A stretch of DNA of 64,000 bases from an uncultured Gammaproteobacteria bacterium (GCA_964402565.1 CAYOCJ010000001.1:32079-96078); one strand, 5' to 3'. Positions 1,818-51,870 are shown, numbered from the stretch's first letter. Translations and numbers: made by a program. Notes: generated by a model not told the origin, from the sequence alone.

Positions 1818-2543
1818 ATGGAATCAAACGCGCAACAAACTCAGGAGGTTCTGAAACAGGAAACGGAGATATTGAAAGAGGAAAAAGCAATTTTACAGGA
1901 GGTAAAGAAAGAACAGCGATCGCTGAAGTCGCTGACCAAAAATGTCTGGTTTCTGAATATCGCGGTAGTTGTCATTGTCGTCGGCGTTGTCGTTGGGCTC
2001 TTGTACTGGAATGTTTCTTCGAACAGGGTCTATACCGATAAAGCTTCCATCATGGCGCCGGAGATAGCATTGGCTCCAAAGTCGAGCGGCACGCTCGAAG
2101 AGCTCTATGTACACGAAGGCGATGCAATCCTCAAAGATACGACCGTGGCGCGCGTCGGCAATGAATTGATCAAAACCAGCGTTGATACGATCGTAGTCAG
2201 TGTGAAGGATGATGTCGGGAAGATCTTTAACCCGGGTGAAGCAGTGGTAACCGTTATCGATCCCAGCACATTGCGCGTGGTCGGAAGCGTCGGGGAAGAC
2301 AAAGGCCTGACAGATATTCGTGTCGGACAGCGCGCTGTCTTTACCGTTGACGCATTTGGAGGCAGGCAATTTGATGGTATTGTCGATGAGGTCAGTCCAA
2401 CTTCGCATCAGAGCGATATTGTGTTTAATATTTCTGACAAGCGAGAAACGCAGGATTTTGATGTGAAGGTTCGCTTCGACATCAATGCATATCCTGAGCT
2501 CAAGAATGGCATGTCTGCCAAGATCTGGGTCTACAAAAATTAA
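1818..2543 (+). CDS. HlyD/EmrA-like membrane fusion protein (short paralog)
   Basis: TM anchor, coiled-coil N-terminus, and a biotinyl/lipoyl-like plus beta-barrel C-terminal segment (AVFTVDAFGGRQFDGIVDEVSP). Tandem with the preceding adaptor. Confidence 0.55.
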   Translation: MESNAQQTQEVLKQETEILKEEKAILQEVKKEQRSLKSLTKNVWFLNIAVVVIVVGVVVGLLYWNVSSNRVYTDKASIMAPEIALAPKSSGTLEELYVHEGDAILKDTTVARVGNELIKTSVDTIVVSVKDDVGKIFNPGEAVVTVIDPSTLRVVGSVGEDKGLTDIRVGQRAVFTVDAFGGRQFDGIVDEVSPTSHQSDIVFNISDKRETQDFDVKVRFDINAYPELKNGMSAKIWVYKN

Positions 2544-2548
2544 AACCT

Positions 2549-4048
2549 ATGACTGAGGCTGCTCCACAAAAAAATGGCGCCAAATGGTTAGTGCTCCTGA
2601 CCGTCATTGTCGGTACTTTTTTGGGGCGGCTTGATCAAACCATCGTCAACCTGGCTTTGCCAAAGATGATCGATGATTTCGGCATTTCGGTCACGGCCGC
2701 AGGGTGGATCGCGACAGCATATATTCTTGCGAACGCTATCTTCGTCCCGATCTGGGGCAAGCTCGGCGACACTATCGGCCGAAAAAAAGTCTATGTGTTA
2801 GGCTTCATCGGTTTTATCATCGGCTCTGCGCTTGCTGGCTTTTCATGGAATTTAGGTTCTATGATCGTGTTTCGTGTTCTACAGGCCATTGCGAGTTCTG
2901 CGGATTATCCGACCGCGATGGCGATCCTTGCGGTGACCTTCAAAGAAGGCAAAGAACGCGCACAGGCACTGGGGATCTGGTCTTCATCTTTTGCCGCCGC
3001 TGCCGTATTCGGTCCGTTACTCGGCGGTCCGCTCATCGACAACTTTGGCTGGCGGTCCATCTTCTTGATCAATATTCCTGTCGGCCTGGTCGGCCTGCTC
3101 ATGGCCTTCGTGTATGTGAAAGAATCTGTTTCCGAGCGCAAGACGAAAGTATTTGACTGGTGGGGGGCGATTACGCTGGGTGCGGCGCTCGCAGCCTTAG
3201 TGCTGGTACTTGATAAAGGTCTTGATTGGGGATGGCTCTCGGTGAAAAGCATGATCACCTATGCTGCGACGGTTGTTTTCACCTACATTTTCATACGCGT
3301 GGAGAAACATCACCCAGAACCGATCGTCGATCTGAAATTTTTCCAAAACAGCACTTTCGTCAATACGATCATCAATAATTTTATCGTTTTCATGGGCATG
3401 ATCGGGAGTCTTTTCTTGATCCCGATCTTCGCGCAGACCTTTTTGGGCTATGATGCGACTGAAACCGGCTATCTTTTCATACCGATGGCCGCCGCGCTGA
3501 TGATCGGAGCGCCGATCGGCGGCCAGCTCGTGGGTAAGGTACAGGCGCGCTATGTCATTGCGGCGAGTACTTTTTTATCAGGCTGTGCAATGTATCTTTT
3601 CTCGCTTCTTGACCCAAGATCAAGTGCCCTGGATATCATAGTGCCTCTTGCATTCATGGCTTTCTCATTAGGATTCGGTATGGCACAGCGCACCACAACT
3701 ATCACGTCAGCAGTCCCTACGAATGAAGTTGGTGTTGCTTCATCTATTCTGGCGTTGGCGCGTAATATTGCCGGAGCATTCGGCATTGCGGTTTTTGGAA
3801 CGATTTTACATAATGCGATCGAACGCAATGTACTCGACATCGCCCGCCAGAGCACCTTGCATCTGACCGACCCGACACAATACGGTCAGGCCATCGGTCT
3901 GATGTCGCTCAAAGCACAGATCTCTTCGTATGGGACTGTGTATGCGGTTGCTGCGGCGATCATGATCGTCGGTGCAGTCAATGCATTCTGGATCAGATCG
4001 CCAAAGAAGCAGGAAAAAATTAAAGCCAGCGACTTGATGATGGAGTAA
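2549..4048 (+). CDS. MFS transporter, DHA2 (EmrB/QacA) drug-resistance family, 14-TMS type
   Basis: About 500 aa and highly hydrophobic. Motif GRLDQTIVNLALP...G.LGD.IGRKK is typical of the DHA2 family. Last gene of the marR-hlyD-hlyD-mfs unit. Confidence 0.8.
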   Translation: MTEAAPQKNGAKWLVLLTVIVGTFLGRLDQTIVNLALPKMIDDFGISVTAAGWIATAYILANAIFVPIWGKLGDTIGRKKVYVLGFIGFIIGSALAGFSWNLGSMIVFRVLQAIASSADYPTAMAILAVTFKEGKERAQALGIWSSSFAAAAVFGPLLGGPLIDNFGWRSIFLINIPVGLVGLLMAFVYVKESVSERKTKVFDWWGAITLGAALAALVLVLDKGLDWGWLSVKSMITYAATVVFTYIFIRVEKHHPEPIVDLKFFQNSTFVNTIINNFIVFMGMIGSLFLIPIFAQTFLGYDATETGYLFIPMAAALMIGAPIGGQLVGKVQARYVIAASTFLSGCAMYLFSLLDPRSSALDIIVPLAFMAFSLGFGMAQRTTTITSAVPTNEVGVASSILALARNIAGAFGIAVFGTILHNAIERNVLDIARQSTLHLTDPTQYGQAIGLMSLKAQISSYGTVYAVAAAIMIVGAVNAFWIRSPKKQEKIKASDLMME

Positions 4049-4063
4049 TGGTTACGAATAACT

Positions 4064-4193
4064 CAAAACTCACCTTTTAGAGGTGAGTCATTGTGACGGG
4101 TACTCCGTAGATCCGCAAGGAGCGAAGGAGGATGGGGTTGCTATCTGCGTGTCGGCAGGCAGGGATGAGAAGGTTGGGAAACTTTTAATTTAT
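4064..4193. repeat. Mosaic island repeat, copy D: hairpin module actcaccttttagaggtgagt plus the ggatgagaaggttgggaaacttttaa module
   Basis: The same hairpin core (cccacc tttag aggtggg variants) and the ggatgagaaggttgggaaactttta block recur at 7194-7268. The hairpin core recurs in all copies. Confidence 0.6.
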
Positions 4194-4312
4194 GTTATCC
4201 CTTGGAAGCGTATGGTCAATTGGAAGATGTAATATTCCCATCGATAATTTCAAGCACTGCAATCTCGAGGTCGCTTTTAAATATACTTTTTTGAAATTTC
4301 CATTTTACAATT

Positions 4313-4753
4313 CTACTGATCTAACGTATAAGGTAAAACTTCGCCACTTTTTTTATACTCTAAACCATTTTTCATACCAAGAGTAAACATAATTGCTGGG
4401 ATGACGATAAGTATAATTAGTACTATTATCCACCCGACTCTTTTTAATCGAGGATAGACAGCAGATAAAAAAATACCACTCAAAATAGCAAAGGGAGCGG
4501 AAAAAAATAAACTAATTCCTATTATATCACTGGTGCTCCAAGTGCCCCTCGTTATATGTCCATATGCAGCTAAGTCATGACCAACCATGCCAGCCGCAAT
4601 AAAATTGTTCCAAGAAACCCATGTATAGATGCTCCATAAAAAAGCACGTATAATCCGATCATTAAAAGCATTCTTAGGTGCTGGTTTTGATTGTGAATTA
4701 TATTCTTCCATATTTATTGTTAATTTAAGTATAGAAATTACATTATAGCACAA
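4313..4753 (-). CDS. hypothetical small integral membrane protein (island cargo)
   Basis: ORF with 3-4 predicted TM segments. Likely true start at the internal MEEYNSQ (about 4712). No recognisable family. Confidence 0.4.
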   Translation of the reverse strand: MCYNVISILKLTINMEEYNSQSKPAPKNAFNDRIIRAFLWSIYTWVSWNNFIAAGMVGHDLAAYGHITRGTWSTSDIIGISLFFSAPFAILSGIFLSAVYPRLKRVGWIIVLIILIVIPAIMFTLGMKNGLEYKKSGEVLPYTLDQ

Positions 4754-4880
4754 AACCCAGTTTTAGACTGAGGCTTTATGACGGGTGGCGTCGCCACGTT
4801 CTACGTGGCTTTACGGAGTGGCAAACTCCATTTGACGCTTTATTTACAACACAAAACCCACCTTTTAGAGGTGGGTCATC
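4748..4880. repeat. Mosaic island repeat, copy C (module order permuted relative to copies A and B)
   Basis: Contains gggtggcgtcgccacgttctacgtggctttacg followed by gcaaactccatttgacgctttatttacaacacaaaacccaccttttagaggtgggtca. These are the same blocks as in 6096-6200 and 8264-8365, but in the opposite order. Confidence 0.6.
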
Positions 4881-5009
4881 AATTAGGTTTTGATTTCAAA
4901 TGGGCGGTTTTCGGAAGTATTGATCTTGTATACGAAAAGGAAATAGATATAGCTTCGGAAACGATTATTCGTTTGCCGGAAATCACTTTTGCTAATCCTC
5001 CAAAGAAAA

Positions 5010-5061
5010 ACGCCGCGTGAGCTTGTAAGCTTTTGACGCGGCGTTAGGTTATTCTTTTTTT
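5010..5061. terminator. Intrinsic terminator-like hairpin (acgccgcg...cgcggcgt) flanked by an A-run and a T-run; plausibly bidirectional
   Basis: Stem of about 8 bp with an inner palindrome agcttgtaagct, followed by a T-run (ttattcttttttt). Confidence 0.4.
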
Positions 5062-5266
5062 AGGAGAGATGTGCGAATTTTTGGATACACATACTCTCCT
5101 GGTTGTTCCATGCACCATCCTTCTGGGGAGCCAGCTGGCGTAATCGGGTCTCTCAGCCAAGGGAAGAGTATTAAGAGACAATCCCTTAAGCCCTCCTTAT
5201 AGACGACAAGTCCACTATGAGCAGGGTTCAAGAATTTAAATTGTAAAACCGCTTTTCAAGAGGGTT

Positions 5267-5986
5267 TTACGAACTTTGTAGAATCTTCAACGTACTTATG
5301 AGTTGTTCAATTGTTGGATCGAAGCTTTGTTGAGGTTTGCGCATTTCGTCCATAAACCAAGCTTTCGCTGCATCAAGATCGCCGCTGTCACCTGAAAATG
5401 GTGTAAATCCTCCTTCGGTAATAATGAGGTTTGGGTACTGTTGATTTGCTAAAGGCACTAGATAGTTGTATCCAATGTCAACAGAAAGGATATTAGTTAG
5501 CACACAATACTGGAGTACTTTCAACCCATTCAAATCTATAACCTTCGGAACTGACACAGCTGCGATGGTACCTGAACTCTTCATGATAGCAGTTTTGAGA
5601 TCTTCAGTAGACTTTTTAAGATCAAGCGGTTTTGCTAGACTGTTGTTCGTATTGCTGTTAGGAGCCTCAATCGTAAGATAGGAATGGGATCCAACTTTAT
5701 CAACCGTATCCATTATCAGCCACAACCCCACTGTCCTACCTCCATTGTCTTTACTGACTAATCGGGTAATTGATACATTAGGCGGATGTCTAAACTCAAT
5801 GCCAAGTTCTTGATCCTGATACTTAGGCCATAAGGATGTATCTGTAATGTCAATCAGGTTTGCAGTATTTGTACCTGTTATCTCCGAGGGCTTCCATTTG
5901 TTTACACATATAAGCGCAACGAAAATAGACACTCCTATCACAAGAATGAAAAGTATGAATAAAAGTAGTTTTGCATTATATTTCAT
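5267..5986 (-). CDS. hypothetical membrane-anchored protein (island cargo)
   Basis: N-terminal TM helix (LLLFILFILVIGVSIFVALICV) then a soluble domain. No family recognised. Confidence 0.45.
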   Translation of the reverse strand: MKYNAKLLLFILFILVIGVSIFVALICVNKWKPSEITGTNTANLIDITDTSLWPKYQDQELGIEFRHPPNVSITRLVSKDNGGRTVGLWLIMDTVDKVGSHSYLTIEAPNSNTNNSLAKPLDLKKSTEDLKTAIMKSSGTIAAVSVPKVIDLNGLKVLQYCVLTNILSVDIGYNYLVPLANQQYPNLIITEGGFTPFSGDSGDLDAAKAWFMDEMRKPQQSFDPTIEQLISTLKILQSS

Positions 5987-5995
5987 ATGTACCCA

Positions 5996-6025
5996 ATTCT
6001 AACAGCACAAGATAAACTCTGTCCA
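5996..6025 (-). promoter_or_regulatory. sigma70-like promoter on the minus strand (TGGACA-N18-TAGAAT); the -10 ends about 10 nt before the ATG of the 5267..5986 gene, implying a leaderless mRNA
   Basis: Read on the minus strand: tggaca gagtttatcttgtgctgt tagaat tgggtacat ATG. The -35 hexamer lies inside the repeat module. Confidence 0.35.
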
Positions 6026-6235
6026 GCGTCGTCGCGACGGCTTTAATTTAGAGTTCAAAGTCCTTCTAGGGGTGCATATATTTTCTACTTTTTTGGCAAA
6101 CTCCATTTGACGCTTTATTTACAACACAAAACCCACCTTTTAGAGGTGGGTCATTGTGAAGGGTGGCGTGGCCACGTTCTACGTGGCTTTACGCCATGGG
6201 GCGGCTACCCGCCCGCCGGCAGGGATGAAAAACTG
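6021..6235. repeat. Mosaic island repeat, copy B (about 190 bp, nearly identical to copy A at 8191-8385)
   Basis: Only about 4 mismatches to 8197-8385 over roughly 188 bp. Contains the palindrome gtcgcgac, the hairpin cccacctttt agaggtggg, cgtggccacg, and gccatggggcggctac, which is identical to the 3' end of tRNA-His. Confidence 0.7.
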
Positions 6236-6244
6236 ACAAATCTA

Positions 6245-7189
6245 CTAGGCCACCGTATTTGAGTCGGCAGCTTGTATTTGTGGAGTTGATTTTTTGAGGC
6301 AGATCTTGCTGAAGAAGTAAAATAAGTAGATCGCTACAATATCCTGAATCACAAATGAGATTAGATCTATTGTTTTTGGCGCTGCTCCTGGTTTAGAGGG
6401 GTTTATCATGCCAACGATCGCTAAAAGTATACTGGCCAAGATAAGCATACTATAATATTTGGTGCTTAGTTTGACTACTTCTTGATTATTTTGTGTTGTG
6501 AAATGTTGATTGACAAAAAAGTGCGCCGAAGTCCATATTCCCAGCCACATAAGTAATGAATGCGTGATAAGTACAAAAGCTATTTGCAAGATTTTATTCT
6601 CAATTTGAATACCGTTCGTAAAAAAATCTACAGTAGAGCCTGGATGTATAACCCCTAGAGCTAGTAGAAGTCCTCCAAGTGCAAAATAGAAAATTGGGGA
6701 CACAAAACTCAAAAACATAAGCAATGAAAACACGTGAATGCTCGCAAGATATTTTGCAGGCTTTTTCTTGGATATCGAACCAGTTGGCGCATAGGGTTTT
6801 GCATAAGCCCGGTTAAAATAGATCGTAAAAAATAACGCAAGAATGATTACGAGTGCAATTGTTCCGACGCCCATTAGTAGGGAGGCTTTTTGTACATAAA
6901 CTCCTTGCTGAACATATCCAGACTTTGTTGCCATAAAAACAAAGAGACTAAAGATAGCAGCCACTAACAACTGCGTAATCGAAAAGAGCGTGAGAGAAAA
7001 ACGACTGCCTTGCACTGAGGTATAGAGTAACGACAGAAGAAGACAGGTGAAAAAGATACTTAATACTATCGCCGCGAGAACAACTTCACCACCGAAAGTT
7101 TTGAATAGAAGTCCATCGAGAAAGAGAAGGTAGGCACAATACAATACGATGAATATGGTATTTTTTTTCATGCATATAGTATAACACAA
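6245..7189 (-). CDS. hypothetical polytopic membrane protein (about 8 TM; island cargo)
   Basis: 314-aa ORF, strongly hydrophobic throughout. No conserved motif recognised. Confidence 0.45.
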   Translation of the reverse strand: MCYTICMKKNTIFIVLYCAYLLFLDGLLFKTFGGEVVLAAIVLSIFFTCLLLSLLYTSVQGSRFSLTLFSITQLLVAAIFSLFVFMATKSGYVQQGVYVQKASLLMGVGTIALVIILALFFTIYFNRAYAKPYAPTGSISKKKPAKYLASIHVFSLLMFLSFVSPIFYFALGGLLLALGVIHPGSTVDFFTNGIQIENKILQIAFVLITHSLLMWLGIWTSAHFFVNQHFTTQNNQEVVKLSTKYYSMLILASILLAIVGMINPSKPGAAPKTIDLISFVIQDIVAIYLFYFFSKICLKKSTPQIQAADSNTVA

Positions 7190-7193
7190 AACC

Positions 7194-7268
7194 CACCTTT
7201 GAAGGGTGGGAATTTGTGATGGGGCGGCTGGATGAGAAGGTTGGGAAACTTTTAAATTATTATAGTTT
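7194..7268. repeat. Mosaic island repeat, copy E (hairpin core plus the ggatgagaaggttgggaaactttta module)
   Basis: acacaaaacccacctttgaagggtggg then atggggcggct then gatgagaaggttgggaaacttttaaatt. Shares blocks with copies A, B and D. Confidence 0.55.
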
Positions 7269-7356
7269 TGTGCGACGATTGTTCAGCATAAATTATTCAT
7301 ATCGCCTGATCAAACCCGTTGACTAAGTACTCATCTGACATTTCAAATCCCATTGT

Positions 7357-7962
7357 TCATTTGAAATTAGAATTCATTACAGGCGAGAATTCCGCAAGTT
7401 TTGAGATATCGCCACTTATTTTTTCAAAAATACAAGCCCAGCTTCTTTGCAGAGAAGGAAGTGATCGCTCAACTTCTATGAGTTTTCCTGCCGCTTCCAT
7501 TCCGAAGATATGGATATATCCTGCTCCGGCAAGAATATTTACCAAAATATGCTCCTGCACTGCCAGCTCTTCTCCGCTGAATTGGTGGGCAATAGGATTC
7601 CATAGTTTCTCTGCGGTCGTATTATTCGCGAAGTAACCAAAAAAAGTATGACACAGCTCATGAAGCACAACGGAGGCGGCGTGATCCAAATCCTGATCAA
7701 TGAAAAAAGTCAGTGGATCATTGAACGGGATAATCCCTTGCTGGCGATGCACAGGATAGGCAAGCCAAAAATCAGCTAGCGTCAAACCTCTTGCAGCATA
7801 GAATGCAAACACTTTATCATTTATCTTTTTCCAATGTGTCCCGAACTCAGTCGCGAAGCGCCAGCCTTCGGTCACAGCATCTTTAGATAACAAAACACCA
7901 ACCTGGGAAGCAAGTGTGCGGTCATAGATAGGTGAATAGCGAAAGTATAATTGTGTTGCCAT
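7357..7962 (-). CDS. HExxH-motif protein, putative zinc-metallopeptidase-like (island cargo)
   Basis: Contains VVLHELCHTFFGY (HExxH) in a cytoplasmic-looking 201-aa protein. Family not identified. Confidence 0.4.
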   Translation of the reverse strand: MATQLYFRYSPIYDRTLASQVGVLLSKDAVTEGWRFATEFGTHWKKINDKVFAFYAARGLTLADFWLAYPVHRQQGIIPFNDPLTFFIDQDLDHAASVVLHELCHTFFGYFANNTTAEKLWNPIAHQFSGEELAVQEHILVNILAGAGYIHIFGMEAAGKLIEVERSLPSLQRSWACIFEKISGDISKLAEFSPVMNSNFK

Positions 7963-7985
7963 ACTGAAATGAGTTTACTGCATTA

Positions 7986-8111
7986 TTATAAAAATGAGTA
8001 GAGCCCGGGATTCCAGTGATGGAACCCCGGGCCCCGGCCGACGAACTCGAAACCATTGTCACTAACAGGATAACCGTAAGTGATGACCAACGGCCGCGAG
8101 GCTTTATTCAT
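7986..8111 (-). CDS. unannotated small ORF (41 aa, MNKASRPLVITYGYPVSDNGFEFVGRGPGFHHWNPGLYSFL) with a strong Shine-Dalgarno sequence, directly upstream of the HExxH gene
   Basis: GGAGAAAGGAG lies 6 nt upstream of the ATG. Below the 60-aa cutoff of the ORF track. GC-rich hairpin (gcccggg...cccgggc) inside its 3' half. Confidence 0.3.
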   Translation of the reverse strand: MNKASRPLVITYGYPVSDNGFEFVGRGPGFHHWNPGLYSFL

Positions 8112-8168
8112 AACTCACTCCTTTCTCCTCAGATTCGTGAAAGATGTCAAAAAACGATTTGACTTGTT

Positions 8169-8197
8169 ACCATAGAAGGACTTCGAGAATGCGTCAA
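8169..8197 (-). promoter_or_regulatory. sigma70-like promoter on the minus strand (TTGACG-N17-TATGGT) upstream of the small ORF and HExxH gene
   Basis: Minus-strand reading: ttgacg cattctcgaagtccttc tatggt. The -35 lies at the edge of repeat copy A, at the same relative position as the -35 in copy B. Confidence 0.3.
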
Positions 8198-8385
8198 GCG
8201 TCGTCGCGACGGCTTTAATTTAGAGTTCAAAGTCCTTCTAGGGGCGCATATATTTTCTACTTTTTTGGCAAACTCCATTTGACGCTTTATTTACAACACA
8301 AAACCCACCTTTTAGAGGTGAGTCATTGTGACGGGTGGCGTGGCCACGTTCTACGTGGCTTTACGCCATGGGGCGGCTACTGGGA
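8191..8385. repeat. Mosaic island repeat, copy A; overlaps the 3' end of tRNA-His
   Basis: About 98% identical to 6021-6213. In minus-strand orientation it supplies a hairpin plus T-run (cccacctctaaaaggtggg ttttgtgtt), i.e. a terminator immediately 3' of tRNA-His. Confidence 0.7.
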
Positions 8386-8443
8386 ATCGAACCCAGGCAT
8401 CTAGGACCACAACCCAGTGTTCTGCCATTAAACTATAGCCGCC
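8369..8443 (-). tRNA. tRNA-His (anticodon GTG) with a genomically encoded G-1 and encoded CCA
   Basis: Reverse complement gives G-GCGGCTA TA GTTT AATGGCA GAAC A CTGGG TTGTGGT CCTAG ATGC CTGGG TTCGATT CCCAG TAGCCGC C CCA. Cloverleaf is canonical, with the extra 5' G pairing C73. Confidence 0.85.
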
Positions 8444-8492
8444 ACGTAAAGGTTCCTACGGAACCCACGTGGCTGGCCAGTATATTTGCCGG

Positions 8493-8786
8493 CTACGTCG
8501 ATTCCTTAGTCTTCCTAGGTTTGTTTTGAAAGTGAAATTTTAATTGATGATCTAAGTATTTTTCCCCTCGTCCGCTTTTCAAGAACTTTTCTCTTCCTAG
8601 CGCATCATCTTTTATAGTATATGCTTCATAATAAATCAATTGCCATGGTTTTTTTGAGACCGTTGAATTGTTGAGCCCTGCATTGTGTTCTTGTAGCCGT
8701 TTTTCAATATTTTCTGTAAACCCTGTGTATAGAGAGTCATCTGCTTCACTTTGTAAAATGTACACAAAATACATAATCTTTTTCAT
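8493..8786 (-). CDS. GIY-YIG nuclease-superfamily protein (UPF0213/YhbQ-like)
   Basis: MKKIMYFVYILQSEADDSLYTGFTENIEKRLQEHN... shows the GIY-YIG motifs (YVYIL...LYTGfT...R..EHN). Start chosen at the internal Met because the longer ORF would run into tRNA-Arg. Confidence 0.65.
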   Translation of the reverse strand: MKKIMYFVYILQSEADDSLYTGFTENIEKRLQEHNAGLNNSTVSKKPWQLIYYEAYTIKDDALGREKFLKSGRGEKYLDHQLKFHFQNKPRKTKEST

Positions 8787-8823
8787 TTCTGGCTGCGCCA
8801 CGTGCTTGCGCAGCAAGTATACG

Positions 8824-8898
8824 TGGTGCCCCCGGAGGGAATCGAACCCCCATCTCAGGCTTAGAAGTCCCAAGCTCTATCCATTGAGCTACGGGGGC
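8824..8898 (-). tRNA. tRNA-Arg (anticodon TCT), encoded CCA; anticodon stem unusually weak
   Basis: Reverse complement: GCCCCCG TA GCTC AATGGATA GAGC T TGGGA CTTCTAA GCCTG AGAT GGGGG TTCGATT CCCTC CGGGGGC A CCA. The loop CTTCTAA is the canonical Arg-UCU loop. The stem TGGGA/GCCTG has only about 4 pairs including two G-U. Confidence 0.6.
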
Positions 8899-9333: not shown

Positions 9334-10542
9334 CTAAGTGAATATTTTTTTTGCTTCTTTCAATGCAAGGACGAGTTCATCAACGTCTGCTTTCGTATTG
9401 TAACAGGCAAAACTAGCGCGAGCAGAAGCGGGAATTTTCAGGAATCGATGCAGCGGCATCGCACAATGATTGCCTGATCTGATGCAGACGCCGAATCGGT
9501 TGCAGATCTCAGCTACATCATGGGCATGTACGCCTTCGACATTAAAACTAATAATGCCATGCCGTTCTTTCGGTCCATACATTGTAACGTCTTTTATCTC
9601 TGAAAGTTTTTCATACGCGTATTCAGTAATTTCTTTCTCTGCTTTTGCAAGTTTTGTAATGCCATGGTCCATGAGAAAGTCTGCTGCTGCTCCAAGACCG
9701 ATGATGCCCGCGATATTCGGCGTTCCTGCTTCGAAGCGCGCCGGCGGACCCTGAAAGATAGTCCGCTCAGTCGATACATCGATGATCATGTCGCCGCCGG
9801 TTAGGAACGGCGGCATTTGTTCTAACAATTCTTTTTTTCCATACAGTATGCCGATGCCGGTCGGGCCGTACATTTTGTGTCCTGAGGCAACGAGAAAATC
9901 AATATTCAATTTCTGAACGTCGATCGGCACATGGGCTATGCTTTGTGCAGCATCGATGATCAATTTTGCTTTTGATCTTTTCCTGACGATGGACTCGATC
10001 TTCGCAATGTCATTTTCAACACCCAACACATTCGAGATATGCGCCACTGAGACCAGCTTGGTTTTGCGCGTGACCAGACGAGATAGTGTCGCATAGTTCA
10101 GCTCGCCGGTTTTCTGCAGGGGCACATAGGAAATTTTTATGTTCTTTCGTTTTGCTAATTCCTGCCATGGCACGACATTGGCATGATGCTCCATCATGGT
10201 GAGTAAAACGCCATCGCCCTTTTTGAGAAATTTTTCCGCCCAGGTATAGGTTAAGAGATTAATCGACATGGTGGTGCCCGAGGTGAAAATTATTTCACCG
10301 CTTTCGCGCGCATTGAGAAGCTTTCGCATCTTTTCTCGCGTTGCATCGCATGCATCAGTTGCGCGCTGGCTCAGCGTGTACATGCCGCGATGGATATTCG
10401 CGTTATACATCGTGTAGTAATCGCATTCTGCCTGGATCACTGAACGCGGCTTCTGAGTCGTTGCGCCATTATCGATATAGACCAGCCGTTTTTTGCCGGG
10501 CATTTTTTTTAATATGGGAAAATCCGCGATATAGGGATTCAT
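9334..10542 (-). CDS. sufS: cysteine desulfurase SufS (class V aminotransferase)
   Basis: IYIDNGATTQKP..., a PLP-lysine region ...SGHKMYGPTGIGILYGK, and the catalytic-Cys loop RSGNHCA. About 400 aa. Confidence 0.85.
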   Translation of the reverse strand: MNPYIADFPILKKMPGKKRLVYIDNGATTQKPRSVIQAECDYYTMYNANIHRGMYTLSQRATDACDATREKMRKLLNARESGEIIFTSGTTMSINLLTYTWAEKFLKKGDGVLLTMMEHHANVVPWQELAKRKNIKISYVPLQKTGELNYATLSRLVTRKTKLVSVAHISNVLGVENDIAKIESIVRKRSKAKLIIDAAQSIAHVPIDVQKLNIDFLVASGHKMYGPTGIGILYGKKELLEQMPPFLTGGDMIIDVSTERTIFQGPPARFEAGTPNIAGIIGLGAAADFLMDHGITKLAKAEKEITEYAYEKLSEIKDVTMYGPKERHGIISFNVEGVHAHDVAEICNRFGVCIRSGNHCAMPLHRFLKIPASARASFACYNTKADVDELVLALKEAKKIFT

Positions 10543-17003: not shown

Positions 17004-17193
17004 ATGACCGACATGAGGAGCTACGCGGAAGGCTTTCCGTAGCCGACCGAAAGACCTTCAGAGGAAGCGAACACGTGTGACGCTTCTAACCGAAGGGTGT
17101 TCCTTTGATCACACGTATAAAAAGGAGATATGCCTTGAGGCAGAACGTATCGCTGATGCGGTGCTGTCGATCGGGCTTCTCGTAAACTGAAAC

Positions 17194-17246
17194 GACCTCG
17201 ATTCAAACTCTATCGAAACCGATAGGGGGCGAATCGAGGTCTTTTG
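17194..17246. terminator. bidirectional intrinsic terminator (gacctcgattc...gaatcgaggtc, then TTTTGCTTT)
   Basis: 11-bp stem. Sits between the convergent island operon (+) and the 17249..18106 gene (-). Confidence 0.6.
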
Positions 17247-17248
17247 CT

Positions 17249-22279: not shown

Positions 22280-23044
22280 TTAAGGCTGCGAAGCAGCGCG
22301 GGCATGTTTGATACTGCGCGCGGTTATGGAATTTCCTTGTCCTGCTTTCCGACTTTTCTTTTGTACCAGGCGTTGAATAGAACGCGTGCTGATCCGCGAA
22401 GCTGCTGCTCTCTTTGTCTTGGCGCGGTCATGACTCGTAAAAAGGTAGGGAATCTGATCAGTACGCTGTTTCAGATATTCCGTGATATAGAAAAGGGTAT
22501 GGTTATTCAGCTGAAGCGTCCGTTCGCGCCTCCCGGCTACAAAAAGTTTCTTTTTTTTGGCATCAAAGTTTTTGACCAGCAGTTCTGTTATTTCCTGCAG
22601 GCGTATATCGCTTCCCCAGAGCAACTCGAGCATGGCACGATCTCTCGACACAAGGATAGAAGCCGCCTCAGACCTCTTTTGATCAGCGAGCAATGAGGCT
22701 ACTGCTCGCTCGGATGGGACAGCGGGGGCATGGTATCGAACTGGCTGCAGTTCAATGCGCCGGTAATCTATACGGCGTTCAGATTGCGGCAGCCATCGCA
22801 AGAAACTTCGCAATGCGATGAGGTGATAATTGATCGTTGTACTCTGCAATTTCGCTGATGCAAGCTCGCTTTGGAATTGTTGAACCTTCTTTCCTGTTAT
22901 ATCGGCGGTTGAGAGAATATGGTGACCTCGAAAAAATCTATTCAAATAATCTCGGTAATGAGCAATGGTCAAATCGGCGCTGCCCTTAGACCGTTTGAGG
23001 TAGCTTGCGAATTGACTGAGCGTTGCGTCTATGGAGCGTGCCAT
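22280..23044 (-). CDS. tyrosine recombinase XerC/XerD-like, apparently C-terminally truncated (ends just after the H-x-x-R box; catalytic Tyr region absent)
   Basis: N-terminal SAM-like core-binding domain (LSQFASYLKRSKGSADLTIAHYRDYL), catalytic Arg region (AMLELLWGSDIRLQEI), and ...ARSIKHARAASQP then stop. Confidence 0.45.
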   Translation of the reverse strand: MARSIDATLSQFASYLKRSKGSADLTIAHYRDYLNRFFRGHHILSTADITGKKVQQFQSELASAKLQSTTINYHLIALRSFLRWLPQSERRIDYRRIELQPVRYHAPAVPSERAVASLLADQKRSEAASILVSRDRAMLELLWGSDIRLQEITELLVKNFDAKKKKLFVAGRRERTLQLNNHTLFYITEYLKQRTDQIPYLFTSHDRAKTKRAAASRISTRSIQRLVQKKSRKAGQGNSITARSIKHARAASQP

Positions 23045-50968: not shown

Positions 50969-50982
50969 AAAGGAATATTTTT

Positions 50983-51870
50983 TTGTGTTATACTAATGCT
51001 ATGAAAAAAATTTCATATATTATTCTTGGCATGGCTGTCATTATCTTGGCCGTTGTCATTACCATGGTTAATCAGACTGCGCAGGAGATCAAAAAAGCAA
51101 TTCCGACCGATGATAACGAACCCTCGCCATACAATGCTACGTATATTATCGATGATAGCCCGGTGGCCTTGGTCAGCGGGAAAGCTGAAGAAGCAATCAA
51201 CGACTCATCTTCGAAGAAGATCACCACGGTATTTGATGCTCAAAAGAAAGCCGATGTGAATGCAGATGGCAAAGACGATGTAGTGGTCATTCTAACGCAG
51301 ACGAATGGAGGCAGCGGGACTTTTTATTATGCCGCTGTCGCTCTGGGAACCGACGCCGGGTATGATGGCACAACAGCCGTATTGCTCGGTGATCGTATTG
51401 CTCCGCAAACGATAGATATCCACGACAGTATCATCGCAGTGAACTATGCTGATCATAAAGAAGGAGCCCCTATGACCGATCAGCCGACAGAGGATATTAC
51501 CAAGTATTTAAAAGTAAGCGGTAAGACCTTGGTGCCCTTCTTTTCGAGCAATCCGATGATCCACGTGGGAGTTCCGTCAGCATTCCAGACCATAGCATCT
51601 CCGCTCACGGTGAGCGGTGAAGCGAGGGGAAGCTGGTATTTCGAGGCTAGTTTCCCGGTGCAAGTGCTGGATATGAATGGAAATGTGCTAGCTTCAACAC
51701 CGGCTCAGGCACAAGGAGATTGGATGACTGATAATTTTGTGCCCTTTACTGCAACATTGTCATTCACCGGAGTCTCAGGTCAGAATGGAACAGTCGTATT
51801 TAAAAAAGACAACCCGTCAGGTCTGCCTCAGAACGAAGGATCGGTAAGTATTCCGATAAAATTTCAGTAA
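50983..51870 (+). CDS. hypothetical secreted/membrane-anchored protein
   Basis: N-terminal TM; beta-rich soluble part. Confidence 0.4.
   Translation: MCYTNAMKKISYIILGMAVIILAVVITMVNQTAQEIKKAIPTDDNEPSPYNATYIIDDSPVALVSGKAEEAINDSSSKKITTVFDAQKKADVNADGKDDVVVILTQTNGGSGTFYYAAVALGTDAGYDGTTAVLLGDRIAPQTIDIHDSIIAVNYADHKEGAPMTDQPTEDITKYLKVSGKTLVPFFSSNPMIHVGVPSAFQTIASPLTVSGEARGSWYFEASFPVQVLDMNGNVLASTPAQAQGDWMTDNFVPFTATLSFTGVSGQNGTVVFKKDNPSGLPQNEGSVSIPIKFQ

Follow-up and report, generated by a model that had tools for sequence, protein, structure and literature searches.

The cis-mobilizable elements (CIMEs) of Streptococcus thermophilus are att-flanked elements that lack an integrase and have accreted at a tRNA/tmRNA gene, and the tandem islands at ssrA in Dehalococcoides reportedly carry repeated att scars of the 3′ end of that gene. 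The tRNA-linked repeats (TLRs), e.g. the 178-bp repeat at E. coli tyrT, are plain tandem duplications with no unique genes between the copies. The Xer-dependent dif/pdif modules of Acinetobacter plasmids and the integrative mobile elements exploiting Xer (IMEX) depend on a 28-bp site in which 11-bp inverted arms enclose a 6-bp spacer. Here we compare these systems with a locus in 64,000 nucleotides of DNA (GCA_964402565.1, CAYOCJ010000001.1:32079-96078; the window in what follows), whose host is a Komeilibacteria-like bacterium of the Candidate Phyla Radiation (CPR) with a small genome (~0.6 Mb). Between a plus-strand efflux operon of the major facilitator superfamily (MFS), which ends at 4048, and a tRNA-His gene lie four minus-strand genes separated by modules of one repeat family, and every full module contains the terminal 11–12 nt of tRNA-His. 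With somewhat more confidence than doubt, we take this island to be a tandem array of four single-gene cassettes that accrued by site-specific recombination at the 3′ end of tRNA-His.

The DNA covered is the window, which represents about 10% of the ~633-kb source genome, and parts of the contigs of three relatives. Contigs L005, L007, L009, L010 and L011 belong to the metagenome-assembled genome (MAG) Candidatus Komeilibacteria RIFCSPHIGHO2_01_FULL_52_14, L004 to the Patescibacteria MAG H41-bin151_1, and L006 is CAYRBH010000006.1. Independent Logan contigs from SRR12313480 match the window at 100% identity, and the layout of the island is therefore not an artefact of one assembly; their breaks fall within the repeats, and such short contigs cannot confirm how the segments are ordered across W1 and W3, the long modules that are nearly identical.

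Accretion of integrase-less, att-flanked elements at tRNA/tmRNA genes is the closest known process, and the integron array is the closest known architecture. As with the CIMEs and the ssrA islands, the repeats point to insertion at the 3′ end of a small-RNA gene that is regenerated, with its terminal bases forming direct repeats at every boundary, attP-like internal junctions, an integrase needed in trans, and decay of the distal, older copies. Here, however, the units are single genes of 0.4–2.1 kb rather than several to tens of kb; they are numerous (four in the window and at least 10 in a relative), each with a terminator/promoter module, in a CPR host of ~0.6 Mb; and no cognate autonomous element or integrase was seen. 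The locus also shares with tRNA-targeted genomic islands in general an intact tRNA gene, an array that begins at the last base of the tRNA, direct repetition of the tRNA 3′ segment, an empty site (in L006) and an atypical GC content, but has no integrase gene within the element. Integration at ssrA in Dehalococcoides is named in one published account (PMC3146451).

Organization of the repeat modules

The positions of the modules and genes are listed in Table 1. Block searches and a whole-module profile (built from n=16 modules) agree on the places at which the earlier note had located the repeat family, and the six profile matches, at five positions, are confined within the window to 4050-8396. 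The long copies at 6021-6208 and 8193-8380, described earlier as about 98% identical over some 190 bp, agree at 184 of 188 positions (97.9%), and the match is sharp at both ends. A point absent from the earlier note is that this 188-bp repeat reaches exactly 12 nt into the tRNA-His gene. The segment concerned, block E, is the last 11–12 nt of tRNA-His (8369-8380; TAGCCGCCCCA on the gene strand) and comprises the 3′ strand of the acceptor stem, the discriminator and CCA; further copies lie in W3 and W2, and a diverged copy in W5.

Read on the gene strand, a full module starts with block F (GTTTCCCAAC), a variable spacer of 9 nt, E (TAGCCGCCCCA) and the trailer TCACAA. An optional GC-rich hairpin (block D) follows, and then block C, a terminator consisting of an A-tract, a hairpin and a U-tract, and TTTTGTGTT. 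The module ends with block B (GTTYGCCA), block A (..TTTTGCC.ACCCCTAGAGGGA..) and the promoter region of the next gene. The core of the terminator hairpin is present at 4061-4091, 4849-4879, 6124-6154 and 8296-8326, with a diverged copy at 7183-7214, and was not found in shuffles of the window; block D is found three times and block F twice, compared with zero expected by chance. Among the copies described earlier as permuted, that at 4744-4880 consists of two truncated modules joined together.

Table 1. Positions of the modules, cargo genes and tRNA genes in the window, with matches to the whole-module profile
Feature	Position	Strand	Profile match (bits)	Description
tRNA-Arg	8824-8898			
tRNA-His (GTG)	8369-8442	minus		Found by ARAGORN and Rfam (64 bits vs Rfam tRNA); encoded CCA; G-1 at 8443
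W1, tRNA-adjacent module	8193-8380	minus	8249-8396 (86)	E; D hairpin 8334-8365; terminator hairpin C 8302-8324; B; A; TTGACG -35-like edge
Cassette 1, 5′ region	7963-8192	minus		Promoter-like site 8197-8169; 41-aa ORF 7986-8111; 16-bp-stem hairpin 8000-8035
Cargo 1	7357-7962	minus		201-aa soluble HExxH protein, minimal zincin-like fold
W2, short module	7165-7262	minus	7165-7255 (69)	F 7240-7249 (GTTTCCCAAC); 9-nt spacer; E 7220-7229; hairpin 7192-7210; TGTTATACT; near-leaderless ATG
Cargo 2	6245-7171	minus		308 aa, ~8 transmembrane segments; no family match
W3, full internal module	6021-6247	minus	6076-6247 (87)	Degenerate F with GC-rich insert 6209-6240; E 6197-6208; D 6162-6193; C 6130-6152; B; A; promoter-like TGGACA-18-TAGAAT at far edge
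Cargo 3	5267-5986	minus		239 aa, N-terminal membrane anchor; no family match
Spacer	4881-5266	minus		386 nt after cargo 3; degenerate spacer/E remnant at ~4895-4915 (read from the sequence)
W4, two truncated modules fused (C-B joined to D-C′)	4744-4880	minus	4744-4879, double (44 and 18)	First part: C 4855-4877, B 4819-4854; second part: D 4784-4815, weaker C′ 4756-4772, then TGCTATAAT
Cargo 4	4313-4711	minus		132-aa small membrane protein, 2–3 hydrophobic segments; no family match
W5, distal module, most diverged	4050-4193	minus	4050-4188 (61)	F 4173-4182; 20-nt insert; diverged E 4133-4143 (TAGCAACCCCA); different hairpin at D position; L006-type hairpin C (~4068-4090); adjoins convergent MFS stop codon at 4048

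The junctions are of three kinds, and together they match tandem site-specific integration at a tRNA 3′ end. The proximal one consists of the tRNA and one arm, and the internal ones have both arms around E in the manner of an attP site. At the distal junction F and E precede a terminator like that of L006. The hairpin itself is the native predicted terminator of tRNA-His, because in L006 tRNA-His runs directly into the hairpin with no array; the modules of the window are accordingly extra copies of the tRNA 3′ end and its flank, similar to an attB site.

A 30-nt F-N9-E motif was found at six or more sites in three genomes (E-values 1e-6 to 5e-8), in addition to variants that bear inserts, and its sites always lie within arrays 3′ of tRNA-His. 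Similarly, all 26 matches to the whole-module profile are in or at tRNA-His array loci. TLRs likewise repeat the 3′-terminal bases of a tRNA, including CCA, downstream together with flanking sequence; unlike these, each interval here holds a different open reading frame (ORF; 132–308 aa), and an arm not derived from the tRNA (F, B/A) accompanies the tRNA fragment. The likeness to dif/pdif modules and IMEX lies in the small gene modules, a site of ~28–30 nt and a recombinase that would be encoded elsewhere. A site of the Xer/dif type was nonetheless rejected on arm symmetry: alignment of the six F-N9-E sites shows that GTTTCCCAAC is not an inverted repeat of TAGCCGCCCCA and that there are no 11-6-11 inverted arms, the sites are co-oriented, and one half is derived from a tRNA.

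The comparison with integrons goes further. Like integrons and clusters of attC sites lacking integron-integrases (CALINs), the island consists of co-oriented single-gene cassettes, mostly of unknown function and often membrane-associated, with a conserved structured site (75–215 bp) between them, and its decay gradient is consistent with growth at one end. Moreover, block F on the plus strand (GTTGGGA), as read from the sequence, fits the consensus GTTRRRY at six of seven positions. We nevertheless consider it extremely improbable that the island is a classical integron array without its integrase in which the modules are attC sites. There are no R''/R' inverted cores (RYYYAAC...GTTRRRY), with no partner complementary to F in the position of R''; folds of the single-stranded DNA show the terminator hairpin only and no bulged whole-site hairpin; and the energies of B-E duplexes are within the range of shuffles in 8/9 modules. 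The conserved core is instead a tRNA end, the cassettes apparently bring a promoter and a terminator each instead of depending on a common Pc promoter, and neither an IntI gene nor attI is present in the window or in the array flanks of the relatives.

Several further palindromes were noted in and near the modules. Hairpins with CCACGT...ACGTGG stems and differing loops are located at 8799-8827, 8442-8472, 8334-8365, 6162-6193 and 4784-4815, and directly border tRNA-Arg on its 3′ side and tRNA-His on both sides, those 3′ of tRNA-His being block D. In the relatives other GC-rich hairpins occupy the position of block D, immediately after CCA, and are followed by CC(A/G). Several modules carry a GC-rich palindromic insert between F and E (4147-4166 and 6209-6222 in the window, and 1024-1062 in L007), and one module of L004 is filled by a GC-rich stretch of ~300 nt (4040-4330) with at least five consecutive small palindromic hairpins; both have the look of miniature palindromic insertions that form a class of their own. 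An RNAalifold consensus structure contained nothing beyond the terminator hairpin with its A-tract/U-tract extension, and a scan with Rfam in and near the island (gathering thresholds and E-values up to 5) reported the two tRNAs only. Derivation of F from the T-arm or D-arm of a tRNA was rejected, with local alignments no better than those of shuffles (p = 0.08–0.87), and no repeats of the tRNA-Arg 3′ end were found.

Arrays and an array-free locus in relatives

When one genome per GTDB species was searched for the hairpin core, it was found in three genomes, once in each, directly 3′ of a tRNA-Arg/tRNA-His pair. Module copies outside the arrays are absent from the remaining ~60 kb of the window and from positions 1-17000 of L010, and this argues against a dispersed repetitive extragenic palindromic (REP) or miniature inverted-repeat transposable (MITE) element, the explanation that the earlier note had set against its own.

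The Komeilibacteria MAG contains the F-N9-E motif or a whole module at least 11 times over ~12.5 kb 3′ of tRNA-His, with one gene per interval. The cargo of L007/L010 includes a Vut_1 transporter, a MerR/HTH_17 protein, a GDPD enzyme, a cold-shock protein, small membrane proteins, and orphans of 605 and 657 aa, and the L007 cargo is unrelated to that of the window. L004 has at least three cassettes after tRNA-His, encoding a fusion of AdoMetDC with spermidine synthase (SpeE), a 138-aa membrane protein and a GNAT protein. In L006, tRNA-His abuts the hairpin, which is followed by a convergent gene without an array. The three array-bearing lineages thus carry unrelated genes between like modules, and the cargo is not syntenic; conserved synteny was the other outcome that could have told against the earlier proposal. 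Altogether there are ~18 cassettes in three genomes (four in the window and ~14 in relatives), all of them single-gene units of 0.4–2.1 kb bounded by E-containing modules, and the modules of any one array are co-oriented. Degeneracy is greatest in the modules at the distal end (W5 in the window, and those at 17160-17247 and 17779 in L010), and this, together with the tRNA-His terminal 11–12 nt in the full modules, bears out the earlier suggestion of serial accretion at the tRNA.

The tRNA loci themselves have been rearranged. In both L006 and L025 the tRNA-Arg/tRNA-His pair has the opposite orientation with respect to the suf operon from that in the window, and in L025 modules are present on the far side of the tRNA pair (2440-3970) in inverted orientation. 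L006 is 100% identical to the window in tRNA-His, 92% in the tRNA-Arg region and 74% in the suf genes; the contig is binned as Gammaproteobacteria, and because these regions match the CPR window it is probably misbinned. In the Komeilibacteria MAG a functional tRNA-His with a different acceptor stem (GCGATCA) is located at 9543-9616 of L007 (the same locus as L005), with a 5′ relic at 9345-9353 and a 3′ relic at 9687-9713 of an older tRNA-His. The end of this older gene agrees with the E repeats, and the arrangement looks like replacement of a tRNA gene within the same locus. Also in L007, the ORF of the GDPD cassette crosses F and the spacer (3333-3362) and stops at the TAG of TCTAGCC, at the start of E, and the cassette boundary therefore cuts into the 3′ end of the gene. 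A match to the hairpin in L008 is an unrelated terminator.

The similarity of the modules raises the question of whether a dedicated recombinase is needed at all. The modules could be duplicated tRNA-His 3′ flanks that act as portable homology, with RecA-mediated recombination with DNA taken up from related strains or between sister chromosomes, together with occasional illegitimate joins, swapping, adding or deleting the genes that lie between them. The 188 bp shared at 98% by two modules would be ample substrate for RecA, the fusion of C-B to D-C′ in W4 has the appearance of a deletion without site specificity, no recombinase was found near any array, and an inversion of the tRNA pair relative to suf such as that of L006 and L025 is expected between repeated palindromic flanks. 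Modules W2, Kg and Ke, however, share only ~30–60 nt with their neighbours; the stems of the short modules differ, and continuous homology is therefore often just the 11-nt E plus the 10-nt F. The motif-wise pattern of conservation (F, E, loop and U-tract, with variable sequence between) points to site recognition over homogenisation, and exchange by homology leaves the exact terminal 11 nt of the tRNA at each boundary unexplained. For these reasons we regard homologous recombination as an unlikely source of the arrays.

Cargo genes

The earlier account of four minus-strand genes between the MFS operon and tRNA-His is correct, and so are its descriptions of them; the ORFs are of 132, 239, 308 and 201 aa. 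Searches of Pfam and PHROG assigned none of the four proteins to a family, and gave only sub-threshold hints of M1 for the HExxH protein. The GC content of the island is 40.8% compared to 48.2% in the rest of the window, a smaller difference than the 37% against 50% originally given; the cargo ORFs are 35–43% GC, i.e. 5–13 points under the window mean.

The HExxH family is rare (12 sequences in 5.8 billion), and its homologues lie in ordinary contexts, with neither tRNA-His nor modules; this cargo family therefore exists outside the arrays. One homologue (L026, 2088-5084) is directly downstream of a gene for a YcaO-nitroreductase fusion, which hints at a role in peptide maturation for these putative zincins. 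The 41-aa ORF said to precede the HExxH gene is present, but its coding value is doubtful. It holds a GC-rich hairpin with a 16-bp stem, followed by a T-run and a TATAAT-like box, and a coding gene is a less likely reading of the region than a structured leader or attenuator. The spacer downstream of cargo 3 contains a possible 60-aa ORF (5049-5231) followed directly by a hairpin with a 10-bp stem and T-run (5009-5045), and its GC content (~44%) is above that of the neighbouring cargo.

The gene content of the units also bears on whether they could be the remains of larger elements, such as prophages or integrative and conjugative or mobilizable elements (ICEs/IMEs) with their own integrases, that inserted at tRNA-His and were trimmed by deletion to one or two genes each. 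Tandem islands with 3′-end att scars are known at tRNA/tmRNA genes, e.g. at ssrA of Dehalococcoides, and the island is AT-rich and absent from L006, as such an origin would predict. Yet all ~18 cassettes are single-gene units of the sizes given above, with no fragment of an integrase, phage or conjugation gene, and the internal junctions keep both conserved arms, F and B/A, which random deletion would not preserve. We therefore give little credence to decay from large islands.

Predicted transcription signals

The earlier note held that every module supplies a hairpin with a U-tract and, at its far edge, a -35 hexamer for the next gene. Terminator-like hairpins are indeed predicted on the gene strand at 8324-8302, 7210-7192, 6152-6130, 4877-4855 and 4772-4756 (the last two both in W4), but the hexamer occurs in two modules only, the long ones, where the promoter-like sites TTGACG-17-TATGGT (8197-8169) and TGGACA-18-TAGAAT (6025-5996) are predicted. 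In the short modules TGTTATACT or TGCTATAAT directly follows the U-tract as a predicted promoter-like element. The terminator of each unit would insulate it from upstream transcription, and the extended -10 or -35-like element would restart transcription. Each cassette is accordingly predicted to be a self-contained terminator/promoter unit and, with both elements in every unit, we propose that each gene is an autonomous transcription unit.

By sequence, the terminator stems form eight families, all of which fold well (-11 to -24 kcal/mol), with one stem family common to L004 and L007. Despite the differing stems, E, F, the loop (CTAAAAG) and the U-tract are constant across modules, which fits cassettes that come from different donors and need the same sites.

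We note that TTTTGTGTTATACT-N6-ATGAAAAAAA at 50970-51005, far from the island, is nearly identical to the start region of cassette 2 (7165-7190). There TTTTGTGTTATACT-N6-ATG (50975-51005) precedes an ordinary gene for a Gmad2-domain membrane protein, and its presence before such a gene points to a native promoter of the extended -10 type with a near-leaderless start.

A simpler account would make the modules an immobile, local family of terminator/promoter intergenic regions, homogenised or duplicated from the tRNA terminator, between genes that were inherited vertically. All modules do have a strong terminator of the bidirectional type, the TTTTGTGTTATACT-ATG form of promoter is shared with the ordinary gene at 50975-51005, and pieces resembling B plus the hairpin are present in L025 away from the 3′ side of the tRNA. 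Vertical inheritance is contradicted by cargo that is absent or different in all relatives examined and that lies 5–13 points under the window mean in GC, and neither E nor F has an evident role in termination or initiation. We consider this account very improbable.

Candidate recombinases and parent elements

The absence of an integrase from the island, reported previously, is borne out: no island ORF has a recombinase match in Pfam or PHROG, and neither a recombinase nor a relaxase or phage gene is found in the four units of the window or the ~14 of the relatives. The sole Phage_integrase match in the window is to an ORF 14 kb from the island (22280-23044, minus strand) encoding a Xer-like tyrosine recombinase, which retains the SAM-like N-terminal domain and most of the catalytic domain and is probably a pseudogene.

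A cognate autonomous element or integrase for the same att site was not found in viral contigs, phages, plasmids or the parts of contigs examined. Patterns for C, F, B and the family-ii hairpin had zero matches in viral contigs, and those for a 15-mer of E and 15 bases of F gave chance matches only, without the F-E motif.

A 96-aa GIY-YIG gene lies between tRNA-Arg and tRNA-His (8493-8783, minus strand), where L004, L006 and L025 have no gene. A role of GIY-YIG as the array enzyme is not supported; it is adjacent to the arrays in the window and L007 but absent from array-bearing L004, and homologues are found 3′ of other tRNAs (tRNA-Ala and tRNA-Ser) without arrays. These homologues (~60% identity; L017 8001-8270 and L021 8001-8282) are located ~200 nt 3′ of tRNA-Ala/tRNA-Ser in unrelated CPR contigs, and no tRNA-end repeats were found beside them. 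Small GIY-YIG nuclease genes may be insertions that target the 3′ flanks of tRNA genes.

Proposed origin and significance of the arrays

In the reading that we favor, a circular cassette with the order F-E-terminator-(B/A)-promoter-gene would recombine, through a crossover within E, with the identical end of the tRNA gene. This would regenerate an intact tRNA, place the new cassette beside it, and displace older cassettes outward, such that the array would grow from its tRNA-proximal end. As the units are single genes of 0.4–2.1 kb without a recombinase, the enzyme must act in trans and would be encoded outside the island.

Several observations weigh against site-specific accretion. First, neither the window nor the array flanks of the relatives contain a recombinase linked to an array, and the Xer-like ORF at 22280-23044 is without its catalytic C-terminus, ending before the region of the catalytic Tyr with no frame that continues. 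Secondly, E and its flanks lack the dyad symmetry expected for the core of a tyrosine recombinase site. Thirdly, there was no sign of an excised circle, of polymorphism in an array or of an autonomous parent element: all population copies of the L007 array proved identical, no phage, plasmid or viral contig with the site was found, and BLAST of the island against phages and plasmids gave no match. In addition, the W4 junction and the 98% identity of the 188-bp copies are equally explained by homologous or illegitimate recombination, and the promoters and terminators are predictions.

More tentatively, the arrays could be a cassette-capture platform of Komeilibacteria-like CPR bacteria that is integron-like and undescribed but built differently, with the tRNA-His 3′ end as the insertion site; this is a possibility that we entertain without leaning towards it. 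Its recombination partner would be the ~30-nt site borne by the cassette (GTTTCCCAAC-N9-TAGCCGCCCCA) with the terminator hairpin, and an unlinked, possibly novel recombinase or nuclease would move cassettes between genomes, each with its own terminator and promoter. No description of such arrays in CPR bacteria was found in the literature.

If the arrays are the scars of ordinary islands, they are a tidy but unsurprising example of tRNA-targeted accretion. The F-N9-E motif with its hairpin is short, specific and searchable, and can therefore be used to map arrays in metagenomes and to find the recombinase by co-occurrence. CPR/Patescibacteria have tiny genomes and few recognised mobile elements, and their acquisition of accessory genes is poorly understood; the cargo over the arrays consists mostly of membrane or surface proteins, small enzymes and regulators. 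If the interpretation is right, a tRNA-anchored cassette array would be a concrete route of gene gain in these bacteria, and would represent an independently evolved second solution to the problem that integrons solve.

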